A DNA stretch of 64,000 bases from Clostridium sp. 19966 (GCF_032335695.1 NZ_JACTOJ010000004.1:194029-258028); one strand, 5' to 3'; counted from the first letter of the stretch, positions 34,337 to 59,198 are shown. The notes: a model not told the origin generated them from the letters alone. A program made the numbers and translations.

Positions 34337-35155
34337 TTAGATTAACTTGGATATGTCTACATCCTCTTTTAATTTCTCCACAAGATGCTTTACTTCTTGA
34401 TCCCTGTTCCTGTCCATTACTAAAATTACATTATCTGCTTCGACAATTATAAGATCTTTTACTCCAAAGCCTATTAGCAGCTTATCTTTGGAAAAAGCTA
34501 TGCAGTTTTCACTGTCCTCAAGCTTAACATTACCTTTTATATTGTTCCCCTCAGAAGTATTTAGGAATCTGCTTAGCGCTTGGAAGGTTCCGATGTCATC
34601 CCAAGGAAATTCGCTCTTTATCACATATGCTTTTCTTGTTTTCTGCAGCACTCCAAAATCTACAGATATACCATCTATAACTTCATACTGCTCTTTGATT
34701 ACCTCAGCTTCATCTTCCATGCCTACATGGGCATATATTTCCATAAGATTTTTGTAAAGCTTGGGAAGATATTTCTCTACTTCCCTAAGGAACACATCTG
34801 CTCTCCAAATAAATATACCGCTATTCCAAAGATATGTGCCTTTTAGCAAAAAGTCCTTAGCCACCTCTAGGTTAGGTTTTTCAGTAAATCTTTCCACTCT
34901 GTAAGCCAAAACATTAGTATTGGCTCTATTGCCCTTTTCTATATATCCATAACCAGTTTCCGGCCTAGTTGGCTCAATGCCTATGGTGACTAAGCCTCTT
35001 CTTCTCTCCGCAATCTCTACCGCTGAATCTATGGTATCTAAAAAGGTTTTTTCATCATCAATATGATGATCCGATGGAAATACCATTATTACTGCATCCT
35101 TATCCTTCTTTAATAGCTTAACTGCAGAAAGACCTATGCAGGTAGCAGTCTCTTT
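34337..35155 (-). pseudogene. C-terminal about 270 codons of a mannose-1-phosphate guanylyltransferase-like (sugar nucleotidyltransferase) gene, separated from its N-terminal part by the 23.8-kb insertion
   Basis: The frame is open upstream of the annotated Met back to the junction: (stop)KETATCIGLSAVKLLKKDKDAVIMVFPSDHHIDD... continues the nucleotidyltransferase fold where the 58.9-kb fragment stops (...FVEPANKET). Confidence 0.75.
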
Positions 35156-35183
35156 CTAGTGGCTATTGGTCTTTTAAGATATG

Positions 35184-36860
35184 TTAAGCCCTAAACTTAT
35201 AGAATATTTCCACCTTTTTTTCCATAGTCTCCTTATCCTCAGAAATAATTATTTTATCAATTAGAAGCTCTACTGTGCTCCTATCAAATTCTTCAAAAGC
35301 AAGTATTTTGTCTACAGTCAGTCTGTATTTGTCCTGAAGCTCAGCTTTATTATTCTCTTTTGATGCTATATTTATAATTTCATATTTTTTCTGTAACAAC
35401 TGCTGCTTTTTTTCAATTCCTGCAATCAGCATTTCTGCATTTCTTTCATTTATGATATGATTCAACTTGTCTTGATAAACCTTTTGAAACTGAACATCAA
35501 GTTTATTTAATTCTTTTTCAATAGAAATCAGCTGCTTTTTATGATCATCTGCGCTATCTAGAATAGAAATGGCCGCATTATACAAAGTTTCCTTGCTCAC
35601 GTATCTATATACATAATTTTTAAGATCCTTAATGATAGTTCTCTTTAGAAATTCTTCCTTCACTGAATGTGAGCTGCATCTTCCCCCGCCCCTTTGACTG
35701 TTAGTGCATTTGTATCCCTCATATTTTTCCCTATAGCACAGGGAGCCACCGCATTCATTACATCTAAGCACAGTTGTAAAGGGGTGCATGTTTTCTCCTT
35801 TATATCTATAGCTTTTTCTTCTATTTTTCATTGCCTGCTGAACTTCATTAAATATTTCTTGGGAAATTATACCTTGAAAATCCTCACCATAAATCCATTC
35901 TTCTTCATTTGTAGGAATCACTTTTTTTACTTTATAGCTTATTTTTCTCCATCTTTGCTGCACCATTTTGCCTGCATATTTTGGATTGGTTAATATATAG
36001 CGTATAGAGTTACTTGTCCAAAGTCCAAGCTTAGACTTAGAAAATCCATTAATATGGCAAGAAGGCGGCTCTATGCCTTTCTTATCTAAATAGCCAGCTA
36101 TCTTACCAACTCCCCAGCCATTTAAGTATAAAAAATATATTTCTTTCACAACCTCTGTGGTTTCATCCTCCGCTGCAATCAGCTTTATTGTTTTGGTATT
36201 GCCTTCGTAATATTCTACAAACCTATAGCCATAAGGAGGTTTACTTGCTATGGAGGATCCTCTTAGCATTCTTTGCTTTAAAGCATCCCTCACTTTTTTT
36301 GAGCAGTCTTTTATATACATTTCATTCAGTATATTTTTAAAAGGTATTATATCATTAAATTCCTGCTCAGTATCCACATTATCAAGAACTGAAACAAATC
36401 TTATTCCATTTACTTTAAAATAATCCTCTAAATAATATCCTGCGGTGATATAGTTTCTTGAAAACCTGGATAGATCTCTGGTTAAGACCATATTTATCTT
36501 TCCAGCTTCAATATCCTCTTTCATTCTTATAAAACCGTCTCTCTGAAAATTCGATCCTGAAAAGCCTGCGTCCTCATAAACTTCAACCAGCTCATAGCTG
36601 TGATTATCTTTGGCTTCGCTTTTGTCAAGAAGCCATTTTTTCAGGCTTTGCACCTGAGCTGGAATTGATTCCTGCTGCTCCTTCTTATCTGTAGATACCC
36701 TGGCATATATAGCTACCTTCCAAAGCTTCTCCATGTCATACGCCTGAGCTTTCATCTGGTAAATTCTCATTGCAGCTGCTTTTGTACGCTTCTCTTTTAT
36801 TTTTATCCAGTTTCCTATATATGAGTTTCTCCATAAGCTTCTCAAAGCTATCTTCACCAT
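35184..36860 (-). CDS. Large serine recombinase (resolvase/invertase catalytic domain, recombinase domain, zinc ribbon and coiled-coil); the probable start is Met43 (MEKLWKVAIYARVS)
   Basis: AIYARVST catalytic serine motif near the N-terminus; C-terminal Cys cluster CNECGGSLC...C; about 520 aa. Confidence 0.85.
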   Translation of the reverse strand: MVKIALRSLWRNSYIGNWIKIKEKRTKAAAMRIYQMKAQAYDMEKLWKVAIYARVSTDKKEQQESIPAQVQSLKKWLLDKSEAKDNHSYELVEVYEDAGFSGSNFQRDGFIRMKEDIEAGKINMVLTRDLSRFSRNYITAGYYLEDYFKVNGIRFVSVLDNVDTEQEFNDIIPFKNILNEMYIKDCSKKVRDALKQRMLRGSSIASKPPYGYRFVEYYEGNTKTIKLIAAEDETTEVVKEIYFLYLNGWGVGKIAGYLDKKGIEPPSCHINGFSKSKLGLWTSNSIRYILTNPKYAGKMVQQRWRKISYKVKKVIPTNEEEWIYGEDFQGIISQEIFNEVQQAMKNRRKSYRYKGENMHPFTTVLRCNECGGSLCYREKYEGYKCTNSQRGGGRCSSHSVKEEFLKRTIIKDLKNYVYRYVSKETLYNAAISILDSADDHKKQLISIEKELNKLDVQFQKVYQDKLNHIINERNAEMLIAGIEKKQQLLQKKYEIINIASKENNKAELQDKYRLTVDKILAFEEFDRSTVELLIDKIIISEDKETMEKKVEIFYKFRA

Positions 36861-37139
36861 TATAAAAAATTACTAATGGTTCTTTTTTTTGCATAAAAAA
36901 CTCCAGAATATTGATACTCATATTAGTATATGCAGCATGGAAGGATATTGTTAATTCGATATTCAATAGTCTATTAAGAAGCTTCTATTTAATTTGCTGC
37001 TACCTCCTCATATTTTAAAGTTTTTTTAATTTCATAGTGGAATATTACAAATTCACTTATATATTTCATGTTAATATTAAGCTTTGCTATGCTATGATAG
37101 TTTTATAATAAATACAGAACTAAATTAATAGGAATTGGA

Positions 37140-39842: not shown

Positions 39843-39848
39843 TGCAAA

Positions 39849-39885
39849 TAAAGCTGCCACATAAGCTGGCAGCTTTATTTTTTAG
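39849..39885. terminator. Bidirectional terminator (AAAGCTGCCA-cataagc-TGGCAGCTTT plus TTTTTT) between convergent uxuB and GH10 genes
   Basis: Seen in sequence. Confidence 0.7.
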
Positions 39886-40868
39886 AAGTTAAGTACTCTT
39901 GCAAGAGAGTTCTTAGGTTCTCCATTTATATCAAATAGCATTGGCCAGTCTTTTCTTCCTGGCACTGGAAAATTATCCTTCCAGGTGTACCTGTCACTTA
40001 TTCCCCAAAAGGTTACTGAAGCTACTACCTCCTTGTAGCTTCTAAAGGTTTCAAAAATATTATTATACATCTCTTCCTGAAGATAAAGCATCTCCTCCGT
40101 AGGCACTAACACATTCTTTCTTTTGTCTTCAAAGCTGAACATGGAAACATCTAATTCTGTTACTTGAAGCTGAAGACCTAGTGATGCATAGCCTTCTATA
40201 GCTCTTTTTAAATTTTCTATAAGCTGTTTGTCCATTATGTTCCAATGTCCCTGAAGTCCTACTCCATCTATGGGAGTGCCCTGAGCCTTCAGTTTTTTCA
40301 GCATATCATAGGATTTTTTAAATTTGTCTGGAAATTCGTTATTATAATCATTATAAATAAGCTTTGCAGCTCCAGTAAACTCTTTTGCAAGCTGAAAAAC
40401 AGTTTTAATATAGTCTTCCCCTAAAATTTTTCTCCAGCCAGTATCTCTGTACTGCTGATCAGTTTTATCTTCTATAGCTTCATTTACAACATCCCAAGCA
40501 TATATAACATCACCATATCTGCTGCAAAGAGTTTTTATATGCTCTTTCAATATTTCAAGCAGTTCTTCCTTATTCTTTTCAAAAAGCCAATGAGGATTTT
40601 GATTGTGCCATACAAAAGTATGTCCTCTCATCTTCATGTTATTACTCACTGCAAATTCCTTCATCCTGTCTGTTTTTTCAAAGTCATAGCTTCCTTCATA
40701 AGGATGAATTTCCCCAAATTTCATTGCGTTTTCAGCAGTTAAGCTATTAAAATGCTTTTTAAGGAGCTCTCCCTGAATTCCCTGAAAATCCTCAACTCTT
40801 ACAGCGGCTCCAATTTTAAAGTAATCCCTGTAAGCTTCACATAACGATAAAATGGAATTATTACTCAT
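39882..40868 (-). CDS. GH10 endo-1,4-beta-xylanase, intracellular (no signal peptide)
   Basis: GHTFVWHNQNPHW and VTELDV (nucleophile) motifs; 328 aa. Confidence 0.85.
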   Translation of the reverse strand: MSNNSILSLCEAYRDYFKIGAAVRVEDFQGIQGELLKKHFNSLTAENAMKFGEIHPYEGSYDFEKTDRMKEFAVSNNMKMRGHTFVWHNQNPHWLFEKNKEELLEILKEHIKTLCSRYGDVIYAWDVVNEAIEDKTDQQYRDTGWRKILGEDYIKTVFQLAKEFTGAAKLIYNDYNNEFPDKFKKSYDMLKKLKAQGTPIDGVGLQGHWNIMDKQLIENLKRAIEGYASLGLQLQVTELDVSMFSFEDKRKNVLVPTEEMLYLQEEMYNNIFETFRSYKEVVASVTFWGISDRYTWKDNFPVPGRKDWPMLFDINGEPKNSLARVLNF

Positions 40869-40892
40869 AAATACACTCTCCTTATCACTACT

Positions 40893-42920
40893 TTATTCGT
40901 ATATCTTTCTTCCCTTTACATCTCCAATGCCTGTTCTCCTATAAAAATAAGTATTAACTACATCTCTCCACTCTTTAGAATCCTTAAGCTGCACAGAGAA
41001 TTTATCCATAACAAGCTTAAAGAATTCTTCATTTATCTTTCCTTCTAAAGATGTCCATTTTTCTATGAACTCTTCTACCTTTTCTACTCCTTCAAAATGG
41101 GTATCATATATATGCTGCAATAAAGTTTTACCGCTATTTAATTTATAGCTGTAGGGGACATGATGAAAGAATAACAAAAGTTCTTCAGGACAAGTATCTA
41201 TTTTTTCATACCTTGAAGCTATGGGTTCATTATACTGACAAGTATACCCTGTTCCAGTTGCAGCAGTTCTGTCCACTCCAATACCTCTGAAATCCGCATA
41301 ATGATAAGTTCCCCAGAGTGAATACTCATATCCATCTACGCTTGGCCCATAGTGATGGTTTGGATTGACCATCCAGCCTATCCCTAAAGGGCTGGTGTAT
41401 TTTTCATAGACTTCCCTTGATTCTAGCAGCATAGAAACTATTTTTTTTACCACTTCTTCCTCGCAGCCAAAAGTAATCTTGCTCCATTCCTCTGCTATAG
41501 CCTCTGAAGTAAGCTCTGGATTCCAGGCAAGTCTTCCAAAGCCATATAAATTAGCCTGTGCCAGCGGATGCCCTGTCCAGCACTGGCTGTCCCCAAGATT
41601 TGAAACAGCGGCTATGCCACCATGTTTTCTATGAAAAATACTTCCAGCTGCCACCTTTCTCACATAGGAACCTTCACCTTTTGCATAAGTATCAAAATTA
41701 ACAACTTCCTTCCACATAGGCAGAAGATAGCACAAATGCTTTTGCTGGCCCGTATATTCCTGAGCTGCCTGAAATTCCAGCATTATATTTGTATCTTTCA
41801 TAGCTCCAAATAAAGGTGAAACTGCCTCCCTTATTTGAAAGTCCATAGGACCATTCTTTACCTGTAATATCACATTATCCTTAAACTTGCCATCTAAAGG
41901 CTTAAAATTATCATAAGCTGCTTTAGCTCTATCCTTGGATCTATCTCTCCAGTCGAGCTGACAGTTATATACAAAGCATCTCCAAATCACTAAGCCTCCA
42001 AAAGGTTCCAAAGCTTCTGCCAGCATATTAGCCCCATCCGCATGATCCCTTCCATAGGTAAAAGGTCCTGGTCTGTATTCTGAATCTGCTTTTACCAGAA
42101 AGCCTCCAAAATCAGGAATGTATTCATAAATCAAATCTGCTGTTTCTCTCCACCAGGCTTTTACTTCTTCAGCAAGCGGATCTGCGGTGGCAAGCCCTCC
42201 AATTTCTATAGGAGCTGCAAAATTAACGCTCAAATAAGTTTTAATTCCATAAGTTCTAAACTCCTTTGAAAATGCAGCTATGTAAGGAAGATATTCTTCT
42301 GTTATAAATTTTGTCTCATATTGATGTACATTAACATTATTTATAACTACTCCATTTATGCCTACGGAAGCTAAAATTCTTGCATAATCCTTGATTCTAG
42401 CAGAATCCTTAATTATTTCATTATCCTTATAGAAAAAAGATTTACCTGCATAGCCTCTTTCTATATCACCGCTTATGTTATCCCAATGGTCTATAATTCT
42501 TAATTCGTTTGCAGGAGCATCCTCAAGCAAAGCTTCCTCTAAGCTTTTTCCTGTGACCATTGCTCTTATAAAGCTAAAAACTCCATAAAGCACACCATTA
42601 TCGTCTTTCCCAAGGATTTTGATAGCTTTATCTTCATCAAAGCTCTGTATTTTGAAGCCTTCCTTAGCCAAATTTTCTTCTTTTGCTGCCTTCAAAAATA
42701 AATACTGCTCTGACCCTGATATTTCACATACAACCTTTGGAGTTGTACCGAATATCCTATTGATAGCAAAGCTCAACTCTTTTATTGCTGAAGCTATTAT
42801 AGGACTAGTTTCTTCAATATAGATTGTACTGCAAAACCTTCTGTATTCTTCCTTTGAGCTTAAGGCTTCACCATTGCTATAATTTAACCAACATTCATAA
42901 ACGCCGCCTCTATTATCCAT
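40893..42920 (-). CDS. aguA: GH67 alpha-glucuronidase; the ORF extends to 42953, and the likely start is at 42920 ([14 protein letters not shown]) with an AAGGGAGAG RBS
   Basis: [10 protein letters not shown] and the overall roughly 680 aa architecture match AguA. Confidence 0.8.
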
Positions 42921-43068
42921 AAAACACTCTCCCTTAGCTACAAAAATATGCACTTAAATTATGTCTGAATTATAAATTTTATTTATCTTTTAAACCATAT
43001 AATATATAATTGTATTTGTACTATTTAACTATATAATTTTATAAAAAGCCTATTAAAGCTTTAAGCTA

Positions 43069-43935
43069 ATGAATAAATCATGGGGGAATGAATGGACTAT
43101 GGATATATCCTCAAAAGACTTATTAAGCAATATATTCCCGGATGCTTATTACGCTGTTCATAGAAACTGCCAGCCTTCCTGGAAGCTAAACAGGACTACT
43201 CTTAATTTTCACAATCTGATGCTTATATATGATGGAGAAGGTACCTTTTATAAGGATGGAGACAGGTTTACGGTAAGCAAGGGAGAGCTAATATATTTTA
43301 AGCCTGGAGATATCCGGGAAGCTTATACCTCTTCTTCAAAGCTTATGAAATGCTTTGCCGTTGAATTTTTATATACCTGCCCAATTCTAAAGGATTCCCA
43401 TTGGCAGCTTCAGGACTGTGATTTGCCCTTTAGCACCTGTCAGAGGATTGAGGATGAATATTTATTCAGAAGACTTATGGATTTGTTTACTGAGTTTACG
43501 GATTTGAAGCTTTCCATGAAGGGTACTGCTGCAGTTAAGGAGAGGGCACTATTTACAGAAATACTATCCCTTTTAATTAAATACAAAAACGGAACCCATT
43601 ACAGCTATTCCAATCTAAAAAAGGTGGAAAAGGTTGTTAACTACATGGTTCAGAATTACACCGAAAACATAACCTTAAAAAAGCTAGGGGATTATCTTAA
43701 TATCAGCCCTTCTTATTTGGGTAATATATTTAAGGAAGTTACAGGCCAATCCGTCATAGATTATTTGATTCATATAAGAATTAATAAAGCCAAGCATTTT
43801 TTAATTGATGGCCTCACAGTTTCTGAAACTGCAAAAAAAGTTGGCTTTAATGATATATTTTATTTCAGCAGAGCCTTTAAAAAATATGAGGGCTTAACTC
43901 CCTCCCAATTCGCAGAAAATCCAACAGCTTATTAA
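43069..43935 (+). CDS. AraC-family transcriptional regulator (cupin sensor plus C-terminal dual HTH)
   Basis: C-terminal AraC signature (SPSYLGNIFKEVTG...FYFSRAFKKYEGLTPSQF). Confidence 0.85.
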   Translation: MNKSWGNEWTMDISSKDLLSNIFPDAYYAVHRNCQPSWKLNRTTLNFHNLMLIYDGEGTFYKDGDRFTVSKGELIYFKPGDIREAYTSSSKLMKCFAVEFLYTCPILKDSHWQLQDCDLPFSTCQRIEDEYLFRRLMDLFTEFTDLKLSMKGTAAVKERALFTEILSLLIKYKNGTHYSYSNLKKVEKVVNYMVQNYTENITLKKLGDYLNISPSYLGNIFKEVTGQSVIDYLIHIRINKAKHFLIDGLTVSETAKKVGFNDIFYFSRAFKKYEGLTPSQFAENPTAY

Positions 43936-43953
43936 ACCGTTGGATTTTCTGTT

Positions 43954-48804: not shown

Positions 48805-51651
48805 TTAATTTCCTTGCCTCCCCTTATAATAGCTTTCGGGGGCTCCAAGATAGCTTGGTCTTAGACCTCCCATATCCAATAGAAGCTTCTGCAAAATTAC
48901 AATAGGATCTGCCATCCATATTTTTAAGGTATGATACCCTGGACTCTTAAGCTCATAAGTAGTCTCGGCTTTTCTTATATTATAGATAACGCTCTGCTCC
49001 CAGTCTCTTTCAAAAAAGCTGCCCTCTTCTTTTTTCTTTATACCATCAATGACTTTTATAGGTCCATCATCAATAGATACTCCAAGCTTTAAGCCCTTTC
49101 CCTCTGCAAAATCCAAAGAAGGAGCTAAAAGAGCTGTAAGCTTAATCTCTCCAGGATTAACCACATATATTTTATACTCCAAGCAAGGTGCCTTTTCTGA
49201 AGGATTTATGGCGGCGGCCGTAACAGGAAAAATTCCCATGGAAGACAAGGTTCTTCCGTAGCCTGCTATCTTTCTCCAGCCTATTCCATTTACATTAATC
49301 CTCTTTGAATAATGCTCTGCTTCTATTGCGATATATCCCTGTGTTTCTATGAAGCCCTTTAGAGATTCTCTATCTAAATTTTCTGGATTAAACACTGATA
49401 AAGCTACTTTCACTTCATTTTTACAGGAGCTTACTATTGTGATATTCCCCTGTACTATATTCCCTTTAGGTGCCTTTTCCCAGTCAATATCCACCCATAT
49501 TCTCTGTTGATTTTTAACAGTTCCTTCTGTTACATTTAGCTTTATCCAGCTGTCACTTTTTTCTATATTAAAGCTGAAGGGCTCTGATTTTTTATTAAAT
49601 ATTTCAAGGTATCTGCTTTCTCTATTGAAGCTGTCAAATTGGGGCAGCTCACAGTCTTTATCTGAAAAGCTCCAGCTTTTCTCAGACCCTTCCACAGCTA
49701 CCCCCATCTCTGAACCTTTTTCTAATACTATTCTTTTCACTTCCGGCATTATATTTTCAGGCGGCTGATTCCAATAAGTATAACCAATATGAGTCTGATC
49801 CATCATATGATCCCATTTTCCAGAGGCCAGTTTCTTATTATAATAAAAGGTTAACTCACTATCCCTCTTAAAAATAGCTTCCGCTCTATCCGCCAGCGAA
49901 TTGGTTAATGCTCTGCCCTGAAGAGCATATAATTTGTTTTTTTCTGCAGTTAAATAAAGTTCAGTAACCTGCAGTGAAGCCTTTGAGGGATATAGTACAA
50001 GCTGAAAGAAGGCATCCTTTAGCTCTTCACTAATCTCCTCATATATTTTTTCTGCTTTAGCTACTATTTCATAAAAATCCTCGATAACCTTGTCTGCTTC
50101 TCTGTAATTTATAAGGCTGTACAGCTCCACATTATTTAAAAGCTCTGGTTTAAGCCTTCCATTAAACTTAGTATATTGATTTATTATGTAGGCTGCTTCC
50201 TCAGCATATTTTTGTCCAAATTGTGCTTCAGCCCATTTAACTGTAAATTCCCACATATTGTCCCTAGTAAATTCCTCAATGTTCCAAGCAAGACGCATAA
50301 AATATTCTGTGGGGAATTCCATAGGCTTTAAATCTCCTACATTTAATATCCATATCCTATCTGCCCCGTATTCATAAGCTTTATACAGCTGTTCCCAAAT
50401 CTTTTGTATTGGCACTGTGTTAATCCACTTGTAAGATCTTGGTCCCCCCACATAATCAAGATGATAATATATTCCTGCTCCACCGCTTCTCTTTCTTTCC
50501 TCTTCTGTTGGAACTCTTCTTAAATTTCCATGATTATCATCGGACCATAAAAGGGTTATATCTTCAGGAACCCTCATGCCAGCTTCATAATAATCCTGCA
50601 CTTCCTTGTATAAGGCCCAAAGCTGAGGAACCTTTGTTACATCCTTATTCATTTTTTCACTTATGATTTTACGCTGATCTCTCACTATTTTTTCTAAAAG
50701 CTGAATCTTCTGCTGCACGGTAAGCTTACCTACAAGCTCCTCATCTCCGTCTCCTCGCATGCCTAAGGTTACTATGCTTTCATACTCCTTATTTCTCTCT
50801 ATTCCATACTCCCAAAAATTATATAAGTAAGCTTCATTTACTGAATAATCCCAGGCACCTTTTCTGTGTTTTTTCCATTCTCCATGAGACCTTATCATAG
50901 GTTCGTGATGGGAAGTACCCATAACAATTCCATATTCATCTGCCAGAAAAGGATTTAGTTCATCGTCTTCATTAAAGGCACTATCCCACATAGCAGGCCA
51001 AAGATAATTTCCCTTAAGCCTCAATATAAGCTCAAAAACCTTTTCATAGAATTCATGAGTAAAATCCTTATAATTAGCTCTAACCCAAGCCATGAGAGAG
51101 GGACCCTCATCATTAAAAAATATTCCTCTATATTTTACAGAAGGCTCTCCTTGCTTGTACCTTCCATTCTTAACCATTAACATATCCTGGTGGACAGTAG
51201 GAACATCTGCCCACCAATACCAAGGTGATACCCCTATCTTCTCTGATACATCATATATTCCAAAGATGGTACCTCTCTTATCACTTCCTGCTATTACTAA
51301 GGCTTTCTCAACACCTTCTATTGGATTTGGCACCACCTGGATTATGAAGGCTTCCCACTTTCCCTGAATTTCATTAGCATCTATTTTCCCTTCTTCAACA
51401 AGCTTATCAATTATAGAACTTTTACCAATAGTTCCCAGGATAAAAGCATTTTCTGAAAGACCTTTAGAAGCATATTGGATTTTAGGCATTATGCCAGTTA
51501 CTCTATTTATATCTTCCGCAAAGGTTTTCACCGCTCTTATAACTCCCTTATACTCTTCAGCGCTCACATATATATCTGCCGCCTTTGAAGCATATACTAA
51601 TTTGAAGCTTTTATCATTATAGGTATTTTCTATATAGTTTTCACCAAACAT
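48805..51651 (-). CDS. Large glycoside hydrolase, tentatively a GH115-type xylan alpha-glucuronidase
   Basis: 948 aa, size and context (adjacent uxaC, GH67, GH10) fit GH115; family assignment rests on recalled similarity and has not been verified. Confidence 0.5.
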   Translation of the reverse strand: MFGENYIENTYNDKSFKLVYASKAADIYVSAEEYKGVIRAVKTFAEDINRVTGIMPKIQYASKGLSENAFILGTIGKSSIIDKLVEEGKIDANEIQGKWEAFIIQVVPNPIEGVEKALVIAGSDKRGTIFGIYDVSEKIGVSPWYWWADVPTVHQDMLMVKNGRYKQGEPSVKYRGIFFNDEGPSLMAWVRANYKDFTHEFYEKVFELILRLKGNYLWPAMWDSAFNEDDELNPFLADEYGIVMGTSHHEPMIRSHGEWKKHRKGAWDYSVNEAYLYNFWEYGIERNKEYESIVTLGMRGDGDEELVGKLTVQQKIQLLEKIVRDQRKIISEKMNKDVTKVPQLWALYKEVQDYYEAGMRVPEDITLLWSDDNHGNLRRVPTEEERKRSGGAGIYYHLDYVGGPRSYKWINTVPIQKIWEQLYKAYEYGADRIWILNVGDLKPMEFPTEYFMRLAWNIEEFTRDNMWEFTVKWAEAQFGQKYAEEAAYIINQYTKFNGRLKPELLNNVELYSLINYREADKVIEDFYEIVAKAEKIYEEISEELKDAFFQLVLYPSKASLQVTELYLTAEKNKLYALQGRALTNSLADRAEAIFKRDSELTFYYNKKLASGKWDHMMDQTHIGYTYWNQPPENIMPEVKRIVLEKGSEMGVAVEGSEKSWSFSDKDCELPQFDSFNRESRYLEIFNKKSEPFSFNIEKSDSWIKLNVTEGTVKNQQRIWVDIDWEKAPKGNIVQGNITIVSSCKNEVKVALSVFNPENLDRESLKGFIETQGYIAIEAEHYSKRINVNGIGWRKIAGYGRTLSSMGIFPVTAAAINPSEKAPCLEYKIYVVNPGEIKLTALLAPSLDFAEGKGLKLGVSIDDGPIKVIDGIKKKEEGSFFERDWEQSVIYNIRKAETTYELKSPGYHTLKIWMADPIVILQKLLLDMGGLRPSYLGAPESYYKGRQGN

Positions 51652-51872: not shown

Positions 51873-52856
51873 TTATTTCTGATCTGCTTCAAATACTATT
51901 CCAGCGGATTTTCTCGCTGAAACCACTGTTTCCACAACCCTTAGAGAATGCTCTAAAAGCTCCTGGCATTTTTTTAAGTCTTCTTGCTTATAAATATTAT
52001 TAAAATCTATTAATTCATACACCATTCTATTAGAAATATTTTGTTCATTGTAAGTCTCTAAATTTCCTTGGCTTTCTATCTCCACGGAAAGGCAATGATT
52101 CACTGGACTATTTACCTTTATATATCCCTTGGTGCCTTGTATAATGGCAAAGCTAGGACTTTGAGAATCCTTTGCTCCAACACATTCACATACAAAATTA
52201 TCATACTTTAATGTGACCACTCCTGAGGTATCAATGCCATTAGCAGCAATATTGGCAGAATACTTCACTTCTCTTGGAGCTCCGAATAGCCCCACTGTAA
52301 AATGTAGATTATACACATTTATATCCTGAATAGCTCCTCCTGAAAACTTTGGGTCAAAGGCATTGGTTATTTCTCCTGCTAAAAATTTATCATATCTGCT
52401 GGAATATTGAGAATAGTTGCTTTGAACCAGTCTTATCTCACCTATAGAGGAAAGCAGCTGCTTAAGCTTATTATAATTTGGCAGATGCAATGTGGTGATA
52501 GCTTCAAATAGAAATAAATTTTTTTCTTTTGCTAAAGCTATTAAAGTTTTTGCCTCTTCTACCGTAGAGGTAAAAGGTTTTTCACAAATAACATGCTTAC
52601 CATTATTCAGGGCCTCCAGAGCATACTCATAATGAAAGCTGTTAGGTGAAGCTATATAGATAAAATCCACATTGCTATCCTTTAGCATCTCTTTGTAATT
52701 TGTGTATATCTGCTTTACTCCATATTTATCTGCTAATATCCTCCCAGTCTCTTCTTTTCTGGAAAAAACAGCACTGCATTGGACTCCTTCAACTTCCTTT
52801 ACTGCATTTAAAAATTCTTCTACGATTCTTCCCGTTCCTATAGTAGCTATTTTCAT
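51873..52856 (-). CDS. Gfo/Idh/MocA-family NAD(P)-dependent oxidoreductase
   Basis: N-terminal MKIATIGTGRIV Rossmann motif; 327 aa. Confidence 0.8.
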   Translation of the reverse strand: MKIATIGTGRIVEEFLNAVKEVEGVQCSAVFSRKEETGRILADKYGVKQIYTNYKEMLKDSNVDFIYIASPNSFHYEYALEALNNGKHVICEKPFTSTVEEAKTLIALAKEKNLFLFEAITTLHLPNYNKLKQLLSSIGEIRLVQSNYSQYSSRYDKFLAGEITNAFDPKFSGGAIQDINVYNLHFTVGLFGAPREVKYSANIAANGIDTSGVVTLKYDNFVCECVGAKDSQSPSFAIIQGTKGYIKVNSPVNHCLSVEIESQGNLETYNEQNISNRMVYELIDFNNIYKQEDLKKCQELLEHSLRVVETVVSARKSAGIVFEADQK

Positions 52857-53061: not shown

Positions 53062-53946
53062 ATGTGGATAAATCACAAGCTCGAATATCTTAAAACTTTG
53101 TCTTCCTCTGAAAAAATTTTAGCGGAGTATATATTAAATAATGGGGAAGATATCTTATCCATGTCCTCTCATCAATTAGCCTCAGCTACCTACACTTCAC
53201 CTGCAACAGTTATTCGTTTTTGCAAAAAATTAGGTTTTAAAGGCTATTCTGATTTTAAATTTAAATATTCTGTAGAGCTGAAATCAAGCTCTATGCAAAA
53301 TGAAAATATTGATTTTAATTTACCTTTTAAGAAGGGTGATTCTATTAAAGATATCAGTTACAATTTGGGCAATTTATATAAGGAGTCCATAGAAGATACC
53401 TTAAAATCACTTAATTTTAACACTCTTAATAGTGCTGTAGATTTATTATTGAACTCTAAAATAATAAAAATATTTGGTGTTGGCAGCAATTCCCCCTATG
53501 CCGTTGATTTTCAATATAAGATGATGCGCATAGGTTATTTGGTGCAAATGGCGCCACTTCCTACAGAGCAGCATATTTTTGCTCTTAACAGCAGTGAAGA
53601 TACCTGCGCAATACTCATATCCTATTCTGGTGAAACTCAGGATATAATCGATATTGCCCACATCTTAAAAAATAACAATACTCCTATTGTAGCCATTACT
53701 TCTTGTGGAGATAATAGGCTTTCAAAATATGCTCAATATAAAATCCATGTATGCTCCAGAGAAAATATAGTTTCAAAAATATCTACCTTTTCTTCAGGAA
53801 TCTCTATTCAATTCGTATTAGACATAATTTTTTCCTGCGTATTTGAAAAAAATTATAATAACAATTTAGCTCACAAGGTAAATCACGCAAAACAGGTAGA
53901 GGCTCATACAAAGCTGCTGAAAGAAGATATAATTAAAAATTATTAA
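53062..53946 (+). CDS. MurR/RpiR-family transcriptional regulator (HTH plus SIS domain)
   Basis: N-terminal HTH_6-type helix, C-terminal SIS phosphosugar-binding fold features. Confidence 0.75.
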   Translation: MWINHKLEYLKTLSSSEKILAEYILNNGEDILSMSSHQLASATYTSPATVIRFCKKLGFKGYSDFKFKYSVELKSSSMQNENIDFNLPFKKGDSIKDISYNLGNLYKESIEDTLKSLNFNTLNSAVDLLLNSKIIKIFGVGSNSPYAVDFQYKMMRIGYLVQMAPLPTEQHIFALNSSEDTCAILISYSGETQDIIDIAHILKNNNTPIVAITSCGDNRLSKYAQYKIHVCSRENIVSKISTFSSGISIQFVLDIIFSCVFEKNYNNNLAHKVNHAKQVEAHTKLLKEDIIKNY

Positions 53947-53990
53947 AAAATGCCTACCAGCTTACTTACTGGCAGGCATTTTTTATTTAA
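53947..53990. terminator. Bidirectional terminator (AAAAAATGCCTACCAG-cttactta-CTGGCAGGCATTTTTT)
   Basis: 11-bp stem with an A-run before and a T-run after; between convergent RpiR and GH2 genes. Confidence 0.75.
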
Positions 53991-53992
53991 CT

Positions 53993-56425
53993 TTATTTTA
54001 TATCATATACACTTCTTACTTTTAGGTTTTTAGCTTCTCCCTGCAGAAGCTTAACTCTAGCTTCACCAGAATTAAGATCAAAGTAATTATCCGATAAAAG
54101 CATATCTGCATCCAGGCTGTAAATTTCAATACCCTTTGCAAATTTCTCTGCTTTTATTATTACCTCATCACCCTTAACCTCTACAGAAAGCTTAGGATCT
54201 AAAAATTTAAAATACTTCGGTGCTGCAAACAATACAGTGCCTCCAGAGATGCGTTCACCATTTTTATACATATCGTAGCTTACATATTGGCTGTAGGGAT
54301 CTGCATCATCAAAGCTGACTTTTTCCAGCCATTCGCTGCTTAGAGCTTTTACCCTTACCTCATAGAATTTAGTTTCTACCACTGTTCCATCATTGTTTCT
54401 AAGGGCCCAGCTGACTGTAACCTGCTCCTCTGACATAGTCTCATTAGCAATGCATAGCTGAATGCTCTTTTCCAGGGCAAAGGATTCAGCATTCACATTA
54501 GTATTCTGAGTCAAGGTGCTTTCCTCACAGCAGGATAGCATAAGCGGTGCAAAAAATCTTTTAGCAAAATAGTGAAGCGCCTTCCATCGGCCAAAATAAT
54601 CTATGGATGCCCAGGAAGCTACCGGCCAGCAGTCATTAAGCTGCCAATAAATTGCTCCCATGCATCTTCCTCGATATCTTCTAAAATGCTCCACTCCATA
54701 CTTTATAGCCTCAGCCTGAAGCATTTGAGACGCATACAAAAGAGTATCAAAATCTGTAGGATATAGGTAGGTCTGCTGCATATAATTTATTATCTTACCG
54801 TTTGCTACATTATTCCTCTGATGCTTTTCCATCACATAGGAGAAAATATTTCTATCCTCAAGAAGAGTGAAGCTTTCCACAGTCTTTAAACAGGGGAAGG
54901 ATTGAAAGCCAAATTCTGATAAATATCTAAAATGAAACTTTCTGTATTCTGTAAAAGGCTTATTTCCATGCCATACATCCCAGTAATGAGTATCTCCTCT
55001 ATTAGAGGAATTAGGTTCATCAAAGGCTCCACCAGAGGATGGACTTGAAGGCCAATAGAAGGTATTAGGATCGTATTCCTTTAATATCTCTGGAATAATA
55101 TACTCAAATAGACGTATATAGTCTGCTTTATGAATTGGTTTTGTATACCACAAACCATCATTAGCAAAGCTCTCCATCTCATTGTTTCCGCACCATAATC
55201 CTAGGGAAGCATGATGCCTTATTCTCTTCACATTGTCTATAGTTTCTTTTTTAATCGTGTCTATAAACTCAGGAGTAAGAGGACACTGTGCACAGGCATA
55301 CATGAAATCCTGCCACACCACTAATCCTAATTCATCACAAAGCTCAAAGAAGAAATCTTCAGGATAATATCCGCCGCCCCATACTCTTATGGAATTAAAG
55401 TTAACTGCTATGCAGTCCTTAAGGAGCTTACGAGTTCTATCTTTATTGATTCTTGATAATATATTATCCTCTGGTATGTAGTCTGCTCCCATAGCAAAGT
55501 AGGCAACTCCGTTAACCACCTGCTTAAAGCTTTCTCCATACTCATCTTCCTCACGCTTAACGGTGAGAGTGCGAAGACCTATCTTCTTATCCCATACATC
55601 CAAAACCTTCTCATTTTTTACTAAGGTTACTTTTATGCCGTATAAATTCTGCTCCCCGTATCCATTAGGCCACCAGAGTTTTGGATTTTCTATGCTTACG
55701 GTTTTAGGAGAATTATCATAAACCTTCACTTCACCCTGAGGACTTACTATAGTTACTACATATTGAGCTTCATAGTCTAAAACAGCTTTATCTACAGAAA
55801 CTTCAATATTTAATTTAACCTGATTTTCCTCATGCACTTGGGTTACATAAACACTGTCAATTCTAGCAGTATTTATGCCTAGCAGTGATACCTCTCGCCA
55901 AATACCTGCATCGGGAAGTCTTGGGCCCCAGTCCCAGCCCATCATGGAATAGCCTTTTCTTATGTGAGGAAAACCAGCCATGCAGTCACTTACGCCATCT
56001 GCAAACACTTTTTCATTTTCTTCTTTTATATATTTATTAGGAGAAAAAAACTCTACCGCAAGCTCATTGCTTTCATCATTCACAAGTTTTTTCACATCAA
56101 ACTCCCAGGTTCTGTGCATATTATTAACATCACCTAGGCAGATACCGTTAAGCAGCACCTTTCCTATGGTATCAAGACCTTCAAACCTTAGCAGTACTTT
56201 GTCAGAATTTAAAATTTCTTCTGGTACGCTAAAATTTGTCTTATATTCAAAGTCGTTATCCATTATTTTCAGAGCCTCATTTTCGTTAGCTCTCCAATAA
56301 GGATCCTCCATTTTATTATTTAAAAGTAAATCATTATATACGGAGCCTGGAACTTTAGCTGGGACAAATTCCGCTTCTCCTGCAATTCTCATGGACCATC
56401 CATCATGAAGCTTTTTTATATTCAT
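53993..56425 (-). CDS. GH2-family exo-glycosidase, beta-mannosidase-like
   Basis: 810 aa; N-terminal LHDGW...VPGSVYNDLL pattern typical of GH2 beta-mannosidases; paired with GH36. Confidence 0.6.
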   Translation of the reverse strand: MNIKKLHDGWSMRIAGEAEFVPAKVPGSVYNDLLLNNKMEDPYWRANENEALKIMDNDFEYKTNFSVPEEILNSDKVLLRFEGLDTIGKVLLNGICLGDVNNMHRTWEFDVKKLVNDESNELAVEFFSPNKYIKEENEKVFADGVSDCMAGFPHIRKGYSMMGWDWGPRLPDAGIWREVSLLGINTARIDSVYVTQVHEENQVKLNIEVSVDKAVLDYEAQYVVTIVSPQGEVKVYDNSPKTVSIENPKLWWPNGYGEQNLYGIKVTLVKNEKVLDVWDKKIGLRTLTVKREEDEYGESFKQVVNGVAYFAMGADYIPEDNILSRINKDRTRKLLKDCIAVNFNSIRVWGGGYYPEDFFFELCDELGLVVWQDFMYACAQCPLTPEFIDTIKKETIDNVKRIRHHASLGLWCGNNEMESFANDGLWYTKPIHKADYIRLFEYIIPEILKEYDPNTFYWPSSPSSGGAFDEPNSSNRGDTHYWDVWHGNKPFTEYRKFHFRYLSEFGFQSFPCLKTVESFTLLEDRNIFSYVMEKHQRNNVANGKIINYMQQTYLYPTDFDTLLYASQMLQAEAIKYGVEHFRRYRGRCMGAIYWQLNDCWPVASWASIDYFGRWKALHYFAKRFFAPLMLSCCEESTLTQNTNVNAESFALEKSIQLCIANETMSEEQVTVSWALRNNDGTVVETKFYEVRVKALSSEWLEKVSFDDADPYSQYVSYDMYKNGERISGGTVLFAAPKYFKFLDPKLSVEVKGDEVIIKAEKFAKGIEIYSLDADMLLSDNYFDLNSGEARVKLLQGEAKNLKVRSVYDIK

Positions 56426-56531
56426 AATTTTATCTCCTAGTTTATCATCTTATTTAAAACAGAGCCTAATAAATAGATATGCTTTAAACCAGTGCTTATT
56501 TTTTTACTGATTTAAAGCATAAGTTAATAAA

Positions 56532-58721
56532 TTACTGACGGATAAAATGCAGAAGCTTTCCTTTGAAATCTCCCCATAGTCCTTTAATTAAAACTCCGCC
56601 ATTCATGAGCGCTGCTCCTGAATATACTTCTCCAGTTTCTTCGTTTTTGTAGAAGGCAGCCTTGTCTAGTCCTTTTAATCTGATTCTTCTGCTGTGGTAA
56701 TTAGGGCGGTTCAGCACCTGAACATAGGTTACCAACACTTCTCCCTTATCCTTTGAAACATATTCAACGCAGCCAAACTCAGGATTTCGGAAAAGGTTTG
56801 CTATACGATACAAATCGCCCGTTCTGATTAGCTCATTATACTTATGATACATTGCTACCTGCTGTGGTATCATATCCCTATCTTCCTGAGGTATTCTTGT
56901 AACATCAAGCTCATAGCCAAAGGTTCCTGAAAGTGCTACAAAGCCTCTTGTTTCAAAAGGAGTAACTCTTCCCACAGTATGATTTGGGCAATCACTTACA
57001 TGTGCTCCCATAGCTGATACAGGATATACTAGTGAGGTGCCATGCTGAATCTTAAGTCTTTCGATGGCATCCGTATCATCTGAAGCCCATATCTGAGGAC
57101 TGTAATAAAGCATTCCTGGATCTAATCTAGCACCGCCGCCAGAGCAGTTTTCAAGAAGTACATGAGGAAATTCTGAAGTTAATCTATCCATTAATTCATA
57201 AACTCCAAGCATATATCTATGCCATATCTCTCTTTGTCTGTCTGCTGGAAGTATGCTGTTGCCTACATCACTAAGCTGACGATTCATATCCCATTTAACA
57301 TACTCGATATTTGCACTGGTCAGTATCTTTCTTAAGCTTTCATATACATATTCTCTGACCTCTTCCCTTGATAAATCCAATACATACTGATTTCTGCAAA
57401 GGGTTCCTACTCTTCCATCAATATGTATGCACCAATCTGGATGAGCTCTAAAAAGATCTGAATCTGGAGATATCATTTCAGGTTCAAACCATATTCCAAA
57501 TTTCATTCCTAATTTGTTTACTTCATCTACTAAATATTTCAGACCGCCGTTTATTTTTTCTTCATTTACCACCCAGTCCCCTAAAGCAGAATTATCGCTG
57601 CTTCTATTGCCAAACCAGCCATCATCCATAACCAACATTTCAATGCCTAGCTTTGAAGCTTCTTTTGCTATGTTCAAGAGCTTTTCAGTATTGAAATCAA
57701 AATAAGTAGCTTCCCAGTTATTTATTAATATAGGACGCTTCTTATCTTTATATTCTCCTCTGATTAAGTGATTTCTATATAAATCATGGAAGGTTCTAGA
57801 CATCTTTCCTATACCTTCATTGGAATAAACCATAACCACTTCTGGTGCAGCAAATTCTTCCTGTGGTTCTAGCTTCCATCCGAAATCAAAAGGATTGATT
57901 CCCATAACAACTCTTGTGGAATCAAACTGTGAACCCTCTGTCTGAGCTAGGAAATTTCCTGAATATACGAAATTAAAGCCGTACACTTCACCGCTGTCTT
58001 CAGTTGCTGTCTTATCCAGCACTGCTAAAAATGGATTCATCTGATGGCTGGATTCTCCTCTAGCTGAAGATATGGACTGAACTCCTAAAGTTACTCCTCT
58101 TCTATTTATATGTCTCTCTCTTGCCCAAGAGCCATGAAGAGTTATCACATCCATATCTATTCTGTCAAAATCTACACAAGCAGATAATACTCTGGTTAAT
58201 TCTATAGATTCATCAGCACAGTTTTTTACTCTCACACTTCTAGTGATAACATCCAAATTTTCAAAAACAGTATATATTAAAACTATTTCTAGATTTAAAT
58301 GCTTATCTATGCAAGTCACTTCTAAAGTGGTACATTCTTTTTCATCCCCAAAGGTAGCTGGCAAACCTTTTAGTTTAGGTTTTCCTGCATATATTTTATG
58401 AGAAGCATAGGAGATTCCGCAAGCAGTCATTCCAGCATTTGTTCTAACCTGAAGGCAGGATTCTCTAAAGTCCCCTAATCCGCTGGTAGAATATTCTGTA
58501 GGAAAACAATCTAAAAATGACATTCTATCTCTATTATTTTTTGAAGGCACAAAAGGTGACTCCTCTAAACGCATTAGATAGTTAACATCCTCATCTGGAA
58601 GCTTTTCACCAAAATAAACGTGTCCTAAAAATTGTTCTTCATCAACAATTGCCATAATATAACTTGTACCTTTTGCATCTAGCTTAAAGGATTTCGATTT
58701 TTCATTAAAACTTATACCCAT
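56532..58721 (-). CDS. agaA: GH36 alpha-galactosidase
   Basis: 729 aa; central catalytic KWDMN and C-terminal beta-sandwich. Confidence 0.85.
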   Translation of the reverse strand: MGISFNEKSKSFKLDAKGTSYIMAIVDEEQFLGHVYFGEKLPDEDVNYLMRLEESPFVPSKNNRDRMSFLDCFPTEYSTSGLGDFRESCLQVRTNAGMTACGISYASHKIYAGKPKLKGLPATFGDEKECTTLEVTCIDKHLNLEIVLIYTVFENLDVITRSVRVKNCADESIELTRVLSACVDFDRIDMDVITLHGSWARERHINRRGVTLGVQSISSARGESSHQMNPFLAVLDKTATEDSGEVYGFNFVYSGNFLAQTEGSQFDSTRVVMGINPFDFGWKLEPQEEFAAPEVVMVYSNEGIGKMSRTFHDLYRNHLIRGEYKDKKRPILINNWEATYFDFNTEKLLNIAKEASKLGIEMLVMDDGWFGNRSSDNSALGDWVVNEEKINGGLKYLVDEVNKLGMKFGIWFEPEMISPDSDLFRAHPDWCIHIDGRVGTLCRNQYVLDLSREEVREYVYESLRKILTSANIEYVKWDMNRQLSDVGNSILPADRQREIWHRYMLGVYELMDRLTSEFPHVLLENCSGGGARLDPGMLYYSPQIWASDDTDAIERLKIQHGTSLVYPVSAMGAHVSDCPNHTVGRVTPFETRGFVALSGTFGYELDVTRIPQEDRDMIPQQVAMYHKYNELIRTGDLYRIANLFRNPEFGCVEYVSKDKGEVLVTYVQVLNRPNYHSRRIRLKGLDKAAFYKNEETGEVYSGAALMNGGVLIKGLWGDFKGKLLHFIRQ

Positions 58722-58932
58722 TATTCTCCTCCATTCATTACAAGTAATGGTTACTCATAGTGTTATAACTCTAAAACATACTTATGCACAGAATTATATT
58801 TGAATGACTTTTAATACGATTACATTACAAGTAACCCACCTTAACATTTGCTTATATAATACTTTATTTTTAAGTAACAAGTCAATTTTTTTAAGTGATT
58901 TTAGAGAAATGACCAATATCCTATAATAAGGG

Positions 58933-59198
58933 GTCTCTTTGTTAGCAGGTTCTACAAATATGTTTTCTTCATTTATTTCTGGAAGCTCTTCTTTCACCTT
59001 TTCATGATATTCATCGTTAGTTACCACATATATATTTTCCTTATTTATCATCGGTTTTATTCTATCCACTGTATTCCTCAAAAAGCTTTTATTATTAATA
59101 AGCTTTAAAAATTGCTTGGGTTTATCCGACCTAGAAAGAGGAAAGAGTCTTGTACCTTTTCCTCCCGCAAGAATTAGTGCATACAACAATTTCATCAC
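58933..59198 (-). pseudogene. N-terminal about 88 codons of the split mannose-1-phosphate guanylyltransferase-like gene; the annotated ORF 58794-59198 reads through into the island
   Basis: MKLLYALILAGGKGTRLFPLS (nucleotidyltransferase G-x-G-x-R loop) ... NIFVEPANKET, then unrelated read-through. Confidence 0.75.

Follow-up and report, generated by a model that had tools for sequence, protein, structure and literature searches.

What is a 23,785-bp block of polysaccharide-catabolic genes doing in the middle of a gene for sugar activation? The question is raised by a stretch of 64,000 nucleotides from Clostridium sp. 19966 (NZ_JACTOJ010000004.1:194029-258028; hereafter the window), in which the minus-strand gene manC is broken at codon 87 by an element carrying a large serine recombinase. 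The product of manC is mannose-1-phosphate guanylyltransferase, also named GDP-mannose pyrophosphorylase. We think it probable (roughly 0.7) that the block is a manC-intervening element of the skin/SPbeta/gin kind, excised during sporulation and enlarged by a chromosomal polysaccharide-utilisation cluster. A preliminary description of the window had raised a skin/SPbeta-style element within a glycan gene as one of two options, and this is now the best-supported reading—it draws on orthologous recombinases in other genomes, selection on manC, a promoter motif, cotS-type neighbours, and a small open reading frame (ORF) beside the recombinase.

The bounds given in the preliminary description, 35148-58940, prove exact, as does its claim of a split nucleotidyltransferase gene. 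An 8-bp direct repeat, AAAGAGAC, lies at both ends of the element (35148-35155 and 58933-58940; read along the minus strand, 58940..58933 and 35155..35148). On the 5' side, 87 good NTP_transferase codons (...FVEPANKET) run from near 59195 and degenerate into junk beyond 58933; on the 3' side, 270 further codons of the same gene resume at 35147 (ATCIGLSAVKLLKKDKDAVIMVFPSDHH...) and continue up to a stop at 34337. Joining the two parts at the repeat gives an ORF of 357 amino acids (aa). Across 99% of its length, the product shares 76-77% identity with intact 355-aa guanylyltransferases of C. thermarum and other Clostridium, and it matches the guanylyltransferase part of NCBIfam GMP_PMI. The true start is likely a TTG at 59189. 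From core to stop, the 3' part spans 272 codons in the window and in most singly split loci. Coordinates of all features are collected in Table 1.

The same split recurs in many other genomes. Recombinase homologs with 57-76% identity were found in many Clostridium species, and in the first three contexts inspected a manC truncated at its 5' end came immediately after the recombinase gene. For the family survey, one genome per GTDB species was scanned with a recombinase profile, giving 79 loci (loci are cited by L numbers), followed by tblastn with the rejoined ManC; 51 of these loci have a recombinase that is at least 46% identical. Downstream of the recombinase lies the 3' part of manC (from residues 84-87) in 45 of the 51, and where the flank is long enough the 5' part (residues 2-88) is found 2.8-10.6 kb upstream. 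Three of the remaining six loci are on contigs too short to judge, and the other three (Geosporobacter, Thermotaleaceae) split another gene. An identical break point in 45 other species puts the split far beyond chance. Carriers of the codon-87 split are mostly Clostridium, with Hathewaya, Haloimpatiens, Oceanirhabdus, and some metagenome-assembled genomes; we take all family hosts to belong to endospore-forming genera. Family elements elsewhere measure 2.8-10.6 kb from core to core, and the window element is by far the largest of the family.

Occupied and empty sites can be compared directly in C. botulinum, where, among assemblies with flanks about 96% identical, L092/L093 are occupied by a 4,853-bp element and L094 has manC uninterrupted. 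The break points given by BLAST overlap on ACC and the empty site matches the rejoined sequence; integration and loss are therefore precise. In the assembly index, 51 blocks contain the exact L092/L093 recombinase protein. A restorable interrupted ORF is a feature of intervening elements in sporulation genes, and the core repeat, the 357-aa ManC, and the C. botulinum empty site together display it here. As a separate observation on these assemblies, the manC 3' part and the next gene are only 85% identical (L094 6256-8188 versus L093 11572-13477) despite the flanks of about 96%, which points to local recombination or replacement of the C. botulinum manC 3' segment.

The att sites used by large serine recombinases span about 40-50 bp, show imperfect dyad symmetry, and have a crossover of 2 bp, and the ends of the element fit this architecture. 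Across 25 loci, the attL alignment shows a conserved B arm and a P' arm that ends in ATA/TTGGTCAT. The family consensus, with a slash marking the boundary, is ...AATATATTTGTAGAGCCTnnnAAT-AAAGAGAC/C...ATATAGGTCAT for attL and AAAAGACCnATAnCGTCTAn-AAnGnGAC/TGCTACATGTATAGGTC for attR. The P and P' arms are mutually inverted repeats, making attP dyad-symmetric; in the window these arms read GACCAAT and ATTGGTC. In the junction alignment the att arms vary together with the recombinase lineage, and the recombinase gene ends 29 bp from the attR core in the window and at most 72 bp from it in 28 of 41 measured loci (window included). The recombinase is the putative actor on its own element ends. Invariance on both sides is confined to the AC of the Thr-87 codon, which is the probable crossover dinucleotide; the junctions expected on excision are an attB with GTAGAACCTGCTAACAAAGAGACTGCTACCTGCATAGGTC and an attP with GACCAATAGCCACTAGAAAGAGACCCCTTATTATAGGATATTGGTC.

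The recombinase itself is intact. It is 100% identical to P0001 of Clostridium sp. 19966, contains PF00239, PF07508, and PF13408, and has an invariant catalytic serine motif (Y-x-R-V-S21), as expected of a large serine recombinase; all 96 of the 96 columns invariant across 26 family members are kept in the window, including Y17-x-R19-V-S21. Its N-terminal domain matches the structures of TnpX and TP901-1 integrase. By sequence, it falls outside the SpoIVCA/SprA, XisF, and Ccr families: XisF, its best NCBIfam hit, scores 89 bits, far below the family cut-off of 375, while CcrC and CcrB score 85 and 82 bits (cut-off 900 for each), and no orthology to SpoIVCA or CD1231 was found. A phage origin was considered and rejected; tblastn against 50,697 phage records, Bacillus phages included, gave a best identity of 30.8%. 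The sole IMG/VR relative, L086, is the integrated manC form itself, and searches of phage and viral records identified no vehicle (phage, plasmid, or integrative and conjugative element) for the family.

If the interruption were permanent, manC should show it. We estimated the ratio of nonsynonymous to synonymous substitution (dN/dS) by the Nei-Gojobori method and found strong purifying selection, with values of about 0.03-0.12 overall and a median of 0.12 for each half. No stop codon occurs in any of 25 manC N-part sequences, and both halves are in frame in all loci. The constraint holds between species that share an element lineage: manC dN/dS is 0.08-0.10 among L024, L025, and L026 (recombinases 4-9% different, dS 0.18-0.22), 0.05 between L034 and L037 (9.5%, dS 0.88), 0.04 between L015 and L053 (17%, dS 0.70), and 0.03-0.07 between L049 and L054, where manC is in three pieces (dS 0.7-0.95). 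The element has therefore been retained in the germ line together with a functional split gene, with dN/dS of 0.03-0.10 at dS of up to 0.9. Because the break cuts through the centre of the nucleotidyltransferase fold, the two halves are unlikely to work separately, and a permanently broken gene would not stay constrained; the simplest reading is that manC is regularly rejoined in the cells where it is needed, and that the heritable lineage retains the element.

Which cells these might be is suggested by the manC promoter and by its neighbours. The motif tCAC-N17-CATAnnAT(A/G) stands 22-35 nt before the manC start in 27 of 27 loci, 24 of them split and three intact (C. tetani, C. thermarum, and C. 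pasteurianum); the search pattern, AC.{16,17}CATA..[AT]T, has a chance rate of 0.9% per 98-nt window. In C. difficile, the sigma-K consensus combines AC at -35 with a -10 of the CATATAAT type, and sigma-E differs from it by ATA at -35 (PMC3789822). The manC motif fits this sigma-K consensus, and the G needed for the TTGACA box of sigma-A is present in none of the 27 manC promoters. Genes for a GT4 protein and a CotS/YutH spore-coat kinase lie 0.3-7 kb from manC in C. tetani, in C. thailandense/UIB06 (L003/L005), and in L025-L026, L032, L044, and L046, directly adjoining it in three of these loci; L024 has GT4 alone inside the fetched flank. We take this neighbourhood to be the cotSA-cotS arrangement of B. 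subtilis. Taken together, the promoter motif and these neighbours suggest that manC may be a mother-cell gene for spore-surface sugar supply.

An excision module would also need control over the direction of recombination, and the preliminary description had suggested looking near the recombinase for a small directionality-factor gene and a sigma-E/sigma-K-type promoter; there is now a candidate for each. A 52-aa ORF directly precedes the recombinase, and homologous ORFs of 41-64 aa occupy the same position in 42 of 42 family loci, the sister lineage in Geosporobacter and Thermotaleaceae included. Their first 30 or so residues are conserved (hxVxhxYGxExFxxLhxxhhxxKh) and the tail is variable; dN/dS is 0.1-0.75, and their divergence tracks that of the recombinase (r = 0.56). 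No match was found in Pfam, PHROGs, or NCBIfam. In size, position, and lack of a known motif, the ORF resembles GirX (42 aa; gin), CD1234 (skinCd), and SprB (SPbeta), which makes it, by analogy, a candidate recombination directionality factor; CD1234 (PMC5025042) and GirX (PMC5595907) are precedents for such small factors being controlled in the mother cell. About 30 nt upstream of it sits AC-N17-CATATACTA, a putative mother-cell-type promoter, and the nearest relatives (L001, L002, L011, and L013) have AC-N17-CATAT[AT]AT at the aligned place.

A leader hairpin is a further feature of this module. It is strong in 15 of 42 loci (-14 to -33 kcal/mol, z -3.5 to -11.7), examples being L001 9765-9816, L013, L011, L024-L026, L045, and L046. 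The left arm holds a CATAT(A/T)AT -10-like box and the right arm the Shine-Dalgarno sequence, with a T-run and the start codon following; in L045 and L046 the arm sequences are entirely different and the pairing is preserved. This suggests a terminator combined with a ribosome-binding-site trap for read-through transcripts, and a promoter inside the hairpin would give transcripts without the left arm. In the window, the hairpin (36895-36951) has degenerated to -7.6 kcal/mol (z -0.6).

The sequence of events that we propose would run as follows. Late in sporulation, mother-cell RNA polymerase (with sigma-K, or sigma-E in some lineages) would transcribe the 52-aa ORF and the recombinase. With the small protein acting as directionality factor, the recombinase would join attL to attR at the AC of codon 87, releasing the 23.8-kb segment in circular form and restoring manC. 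The restored gene, transcribed from its own sigma-K-type promoter, would then provide GDP-mannose for glycosylation of the spore coat or exosporium. The forespore chromosome would stay unrearranged, allowing the element to be inherited; genes for xylan- and mannan-oligosaccharide and hexuronate use would travel as passengers, and insertions in the element would be harmless to vegetative cells.

This brings us to the cargo. Every ORF of at least 80 aa inside the element (n = 13) was scanned with Pfam, which returned one large serine recombinase, two regulators, and otherwise genes of xylan, mannan, and hexuronate catabolism. The 13 ORFs gave no hit to capsid, terminase, conjugation, relaxase, or replication domains, and the PHROGs match is to the integrase only. 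The statement that the element lacks phage, conjugative, and replicative genes is thereby confirmed, and neither the window element nor the relatives examined have the makings of a prophage, an integrative and conjugative element, or an integrative and mobilisable element. Intergenic gaps are at most 225 bp, leaving no room for another gene of useful size save the 52-aa ORF at 36736..36894(-). That ORF, upstream of the recombinase, is the one gene missed in the preliminary description, whose named enzymes, regulators, and recombinase were all borne out by Pfam.

Less durable was the idea that metabolic cargo alone is a diagnostic sign, since such cargo is peculiar to this genome and family cargo varies. 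Elsewhere, the non-viral contents range from a GIY-YIG protein with a 3-methyladenine glycosylase, an arginase-like enzyme, or a 2-hydroxyacid dehydrogenase with a nitroreductase to large secreted repeat proteins and hcp-crp; no transfer, replication, or packaging functions were found in any family member examined. The catabolic genes of the window resemble those of ordinary Clostridium xylan clusters and so look native rather than imported. The nearest GH67 relatives, 68-75% identical, are found in ordinary chromosomal xylan clusters, including those of C. thermarum and C. oryzae, in which the closest ManC is found too, and neither a recombinase nor manC lies near these clusters. The gene order GH2-AraC-GH67 also occurs in an unrelated chromosomal xylan cluster (L090), and identity to the native C. 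thermarum cluster (68%) is about equal to that of ManC (76%). Left of manC in the window are xylose-utilisation genes (16095-20984: a xylose isomerase-like gene, a ROK regulator, transaldolase, and xylulokinase); they complement the xylan/glucuronate cargo (37140-58721), which is consistent with the cargo being native to the genome. The cargo is best seen as tolerated passenger DNA in an element whose interior is neutral for vegetative cells and for the germ line. Genes that form cargo in L003, L024-L026, L049, and L054 (Pur_DNA_glyco, GIY-YIG, hcp, crp, and pyruvate carboxylase) lie in C. pasteurianum (L085) outside any element, as ordinary neighbours of an intact manC, which hints that elements capture genes from the manC neighbourhood.

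Table 1. Features of the split manC gene and its intervening element (window coordinates)
Feature	Position	Strand	Evidence or composition
manC 3' part, codons 85-357	34337..35155	-	Pfam NTP_transferase + ManC_GMP_beta-helix
attR	35131..35171	-	P arm GACCAATAGCCACTAG 35171-35156, core AAAGAGAC 35155-35148, B' arm TGCTACCTGCATAGGTC 35147-35131; alignment of 47 right junctions
Large serine recombinase, 516 aa from MEKLW (ORF extends to 36860)	35184..36734	-	Pfam Resolvase, Recombinase, Zn_ribbon_recom, DUF4368
52-aa ORF, candidate recombination directionality factor	36736..36894	-	Conserved directly upstream of recombinase
Putative mother-cell-type promoter of the small ORF-recombinase operon, AC-N17-CATATACTA	36924..36951	-	Read from sequence
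uxuA	37140-38219	+	Pfam UxuA 1e-166
uxuB	38220-39842	+	Pfam Mannitol_dh + Mannitol_dh_C
GH10 xylanase, no evident signal-peptide extension	39882..40868	-	Pfam Glyco_hydro_10 6e-96
GH67 alpha-glucuronidase	40893..42953	-	Pfam GH67 N/M/C
AraC-family regulator	43069..43935	+	Pfam HTH_18/AraC_binding
1136-aa GH2 with CBM6	43954..47364	-	Pfam GH2 domains + CBM_6
Glucuronate isomerase UxaC	47404..48804	-	Pfam UxaC 3e-224
GH115 alpha-glucuronidase	48805..51651	-	Pfam Glyco_hydro_115 3e-151 + GH115_C
Gfo/Idh/MocA oxidoreductase	51873..52856	-	Pfam GFO_IDH_MocA 2e-31
RpiR/SIS regulator	53062..53946	+	Pfam HTH_6 + SIS
GH2, beta-mannosidase type	53993..56425	-	Pfam Glyco_hydro_2_N2, Mannosidase_ig, Ig_mannosidase
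GH36 alpha-galactosidase	56532..58721	-	Pfam Melibiase 2e-162, GH36N, GH36C
attL	58909..58964	-	B arm 58964-58941, core AAAGAGAC 58940-58933, P' arm CCCTTATTATAGGATATTGGTCAT 58932-58909; alignment of 25 left junctions
manC 5' part, codons 1-87	58933..59195	-	Pfam NTP_transferase residues 7-87; tblastn to orthologs
Putative sigma-K-type manC promoter, AC-N17-CATATAAT (= ACC-N16-CATATAAT)	59218..59245	-	Motif match

Several observations weigh against excision of this element during sporulation. No spore-coat genes lie near manC in the window, where the left flank holds xylose, phosphotransferase-system, and miscellaneous genes. Upstream of the small ORF, the full sigma-K/sigma-E pattern is present in 7 of 42 loci (chance about 2.6%) and a -10 box in 17 of 42 (chance about 12%); a universal mother-cell promoter for the small ORF is accordingly rejected and the promoter claim limited to the sub-lineage of the window, where the motif reads AC-N17-CATATA(A/C)T, and regulation of the excision module may differ between sub-lineages. 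The Shine-Dalgarno sequence of the window recombinase is weaker than that of its relatives (CAGGCG versus GAGGTG; 36734-36760), and the stop of the small ORF is mutated (TGA to TCA), adding three codons up to a new TGA one nt before the recombinase ATG, which suggests expression of the recombinase by translational coupling, or possibly reduced expression. A scan of metagenome and viral contigs for the attP junction (CGTCTA-N7-AC-N7-TAGAYGATATAGGT) gave 0 matches and hence no direct evidence of excision, although it is uninformative in that the pattern covers one sub-family only and circles are rarely assembled. Recombinase and ManC distances are only moderately correlated (Mantel r 0.47, a value reached in 0 of 2000 permutations), and several sister species whose ManC differs by 3-10% have recombinases that are 28-42% apart; strict co-divergence of element and host gene is rejected on these grounds, and the lineage swaps imply horizontal exchange or replacement, and with it some activity outside the terminal cell. 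Lastly, many Clostridium have an intact manC, so the interruption is not required for sporulation. The history of the family is therefore one of long vertical residence with occasional replacement or re-acquisition.

Lineage swaps of this kind—L006/L017 (ManC 3% and recombinase 28% different), L037/L041, and L022/L053—are what one would expect from an ordinary integrative island that inactivated manC as a dispensable gene, is excised rarely and without regard to development, and spreads catabolic genes horizontally. Empty sites are common, the C. botulinum strain being one, and the cargo is a useful metabolic module. We nevertheless regard such an island as unlikely, since a permanently broken gene should decay, yet both halves are in frame at every locus, and dN/dS stays at 0.03-0.1 between species that inherited the same element lineage over dS of 0.7-0.9. 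The absence of transfer, replication, and packaging functions throughout the family members examined, the lack of any phage record with a recombinase more than 31% identical, and a cargo that matches native clusters about as closely as ManC does argue in the same direction. The second option of the preliminary description, a degenerate integrative island that delivered a catabolic module, is a poor fit too: the recombinase, the small ORF, and the att arms are intact, and the cargo is like that of native clusters.

The horizontal exchange does require some excision in surviving cells, and this could instead reflect reversible ON/OFF switching during vegetative growth—phase variation or 'active lysogeny' that governs GDP-mannose for a surface glycan, independently of sporulation. 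Serine recombinase elements can be regulatory switches, and regulated gene integrity has been reviewed (PMC7192596); moreover, the C. botulinum element yin is excised at all growth phases (PMC10747680). We hold a vegetative switch to be quite improbable, given that the conserved manC promoter is of the mother-cell type and not of the sigma-A type, that manC adjoins spore-coat genes, and that an excised, non-replicating circle would be lost on division, yet the elements persist across speciation. It might also be supposed that the element was formerly excised and has since become fixed in this genome, for instance through weak recombinase expression, leaving a newly dead manC and a cargo that is plain chromosome. 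The weakened ribosome-binding site, the altered 3' end of the small ORF, the degenerated leader hairpin, and the exceptional size of the element lean that way; the recombinase, small ORF, both att arms, and both manC halves are nonetheless intact, and the attP arms are still mutually symmetric, so that a fossil seems very improbable.

The survey turned up further variation within the family. The sister recombinase lineage of Geosporobacter and Thermotaleaceae, which is 46-48% identical and likewise preceded by the small ORF, interrupts a gene for a Lon-like protease rather than manC and carries an alanine/glycine:cation symporter gene (agcS) as cargo (L048 6696-12685, L052 6720-12698, and L045 6686-end). 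At other loci an unrelated serine-recombinase element breaks manC a second time, at W-R-A-D (residues ~204-210, core about GAGAGCAGAT), leaving the gene in three pieces; this is seen in L036 (12203/18114), L049 (14423/19184), L051 (15356/20643), and L054 (10343/15243), and also in L016, L019, L040, L047, and L086. The second-site element carries pyruvate carboxylase (1142-1151 aa) in L036, L049, and L054, and three tandem serine recombinases, as in gin, in L086. In some elements the manC-specific recombinase is accompanied in tandem by another large serine recombinase of 534-538 aa, which has a 54-aa ORF of its own upstream, and others have a 253-aa remnant with the Zn_ribbon_recom domain only (L001 8158-9774, L002 4356-5960, and L092/L093 8030-8791 for these observations); nested or fused elements are the likely source of these extra recombinases and remnants. 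In the C. acidisoli/C. akagii group, the site-1 recombinase is reduced to 428 aa by deletion of residues ~383-471, a coiled-coil (L047, L049, and L051 10001-11290; L054 5566-6851), and in L054 it is also frameshifted. As manC in this group is still strongly constrained, either the short recombinase still works or another recombinase acts in trans.

How does the manC family compare with known systems? To our knowledge, the sporulation-linked intervening elements on record are few (sigK, spsM, spoVFB, spoVR, gerE, and yabG), and most of the known ones are decayed prophages in single species or small groups. Anabaena heterocysts also excise elements in a programmed manner, from genes that a terminal cell alone requires (nifD, fdxN/XisF, and hupL), and there several elements can sit in one pathway or gene, much as in the doubly split manC of L036, L049, and L054; the phylum and the developmental programme are different. 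With the intervening elements of sporulation genes (skin, SPbeta, vfbin, vrin, gin, and yin) the manC locus has four features in common: an interrupted gene that can be restored, the type of recombinase, the architecture of the att sites, and retention in the germ line while the split gene stays functional. The closest known logic is that of gin, which combines a non-phage element, a serine recombinase, and a tiny directionality factor, and that of SPbeta in spsM, a sigma-K-dependent spore-polysaccharide gene.

The gerE-intervening element gin of Bacillus cereus ATCC 10987 is 28.6 kb long and non-phage, and is excised by the large serine recombinase GirC together with GirX, a 42-aa protein with no known motif (PMC5595907). 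It shares with the manC element a short core repeat, cargo unrelated to phages, and a place in a mother-cell gene, manC being a putative one. Its target, its three recombinase genes, the position of its directionality-factor gene apart from the recombinase, and its Bacillus host are its own; its cargo is a restriction-modification system and recJ instead of a catabolic cluster, the recombinase clades are unrelated, and excision of gin has been shown experimentally, whereas we know the manC element from its sequence. SPbeta interrupts the sigma-K-dependent spore-surface polysaccharide gene spsM of B. subtilis, which the serine integrase SprA and the small directionality factor SprB restore in the mother cell (PMC4191935, PMC5499854). 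SPbeta is, however, an active 134-kb phage with a different target gene and different att sites, and recombinases in the phage records reach at most 31% identity to that of the manC element.

Like the manC elements, the skin elements of sigK (B. subtilis SpoIVCA, C. difficile CD1231/CD1234, C. tetani, and C. perfringens) are a clade-wide interruption of a mother-cell gene (a putative one in the case of manC) by serine-recombinase elements, but skin is prophage-like and interrupts a regulator, whereas the manC element has no phage genes and interrupts an enzyme gene. In C. difficile, excision owes its cell specificity to the small directionality factor CD1234 alone, which depends on sigma-E and SpoIIID, and the recombinase is constitutive (PMC5025042). 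The element yin is likewise a Clostridium intervening element, located in the sigma-K-dependent gene yabG of C. botulinum V73; a small directionality factor has been predicted for it, together with a putative sigma-K promoter (PMC10747680). It is a prophage unique to one strain, in contrast to a non-viral family found in dozens of species. The TIGER catalogue lists Cpe2.18.algA, an 18-kb integrative element that disrupts the NTP_transferase domain of algA (mannose-1-phosphate guanylyltransferase) in C. perfringens ATCC 13124 (Mageeney et al. 2020, PMC7192596, Supplementary file 5). This is a single uninterpreted table line, and its break, near HMM position 201, is apparently at the second manC site (W-R-A-D, ~aa 204-210) rather than at codon 87. 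Apart from that line, our literature search found no paper linking mannose-1-phosphate guanylyltransferase to an intervening element. The manC elements are thus an apparently undescribed, widespread new family of a known type of system, and the one in the window is unusual in holding a complete catabolic locus.

Some features of the window stand apart from the element. A frameshift appears to have divided a WYL-type regulator in two, the first ORF (59333-60010, +) being HTH+WYL and the second (59992-60234, +) holding the WCX domain. Between two crcB genes (33369-34166) and the 3' end of manC there is a fluoride riboswitch (34225-34285, -; Rfam RF01734, 50.5 bits). A 22-nt inverted match, 95% complementary, links manC just beyond attR (35109-35130) with the interior of the GH10 gene (40730-40751); it was considered as att-related and set aside as probably coincidence, as its flanks do not resemble att sites and, on a rough estimate, chance alone would give about 0.1 matches of this kind.

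For sporulation biology, the finding would add an enzyme of spore-surface sugar activation to the genes that are interrupted in this way. The interrupting family would be non-viral, spread through much of the genus Clostridium, including strains of the C. botulinum group, and reduced to 2.8 kb in its minimal versions. Dozens of natural att-site and recombinase variants, together with a candidate new family of directionality factors, would be useful for serine-integrase engineering, and the family would offer a testable model of element persistence, exchange, and host-gene capture, with many carriers being culture-collection strains, among them C. tepidiprofundi DSM 19306, C. cavendishii DSM 21758, C. 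amylolyticum DSM 21864, Hathewaya limosa DSM 1400, and C. puniceum DSM 2619.

More tentatively, and we would sooner doubt than assert this, the elements may act as lasting 'safe harbours' in which ordinary chromosomal genes accumulate, rather than as mere interruptions. Their contents include a whole 21-kb polysaccharide-utilisation locus here, hcp-crp, DNA repair genes, and an amino-acid carrier elsewhere, and pyruvate carboxylase in the second element at the other manC site. If this is true, sporulating Clostridium mother cells would undergo a programmed removal of housekeeping and metabolic genes, in at least two steps in some species—a bacterial counterpart of the multi-element editing in cyanobacterial heterocysts, with possible regulatory consequences for the metabolism of the mother cell.

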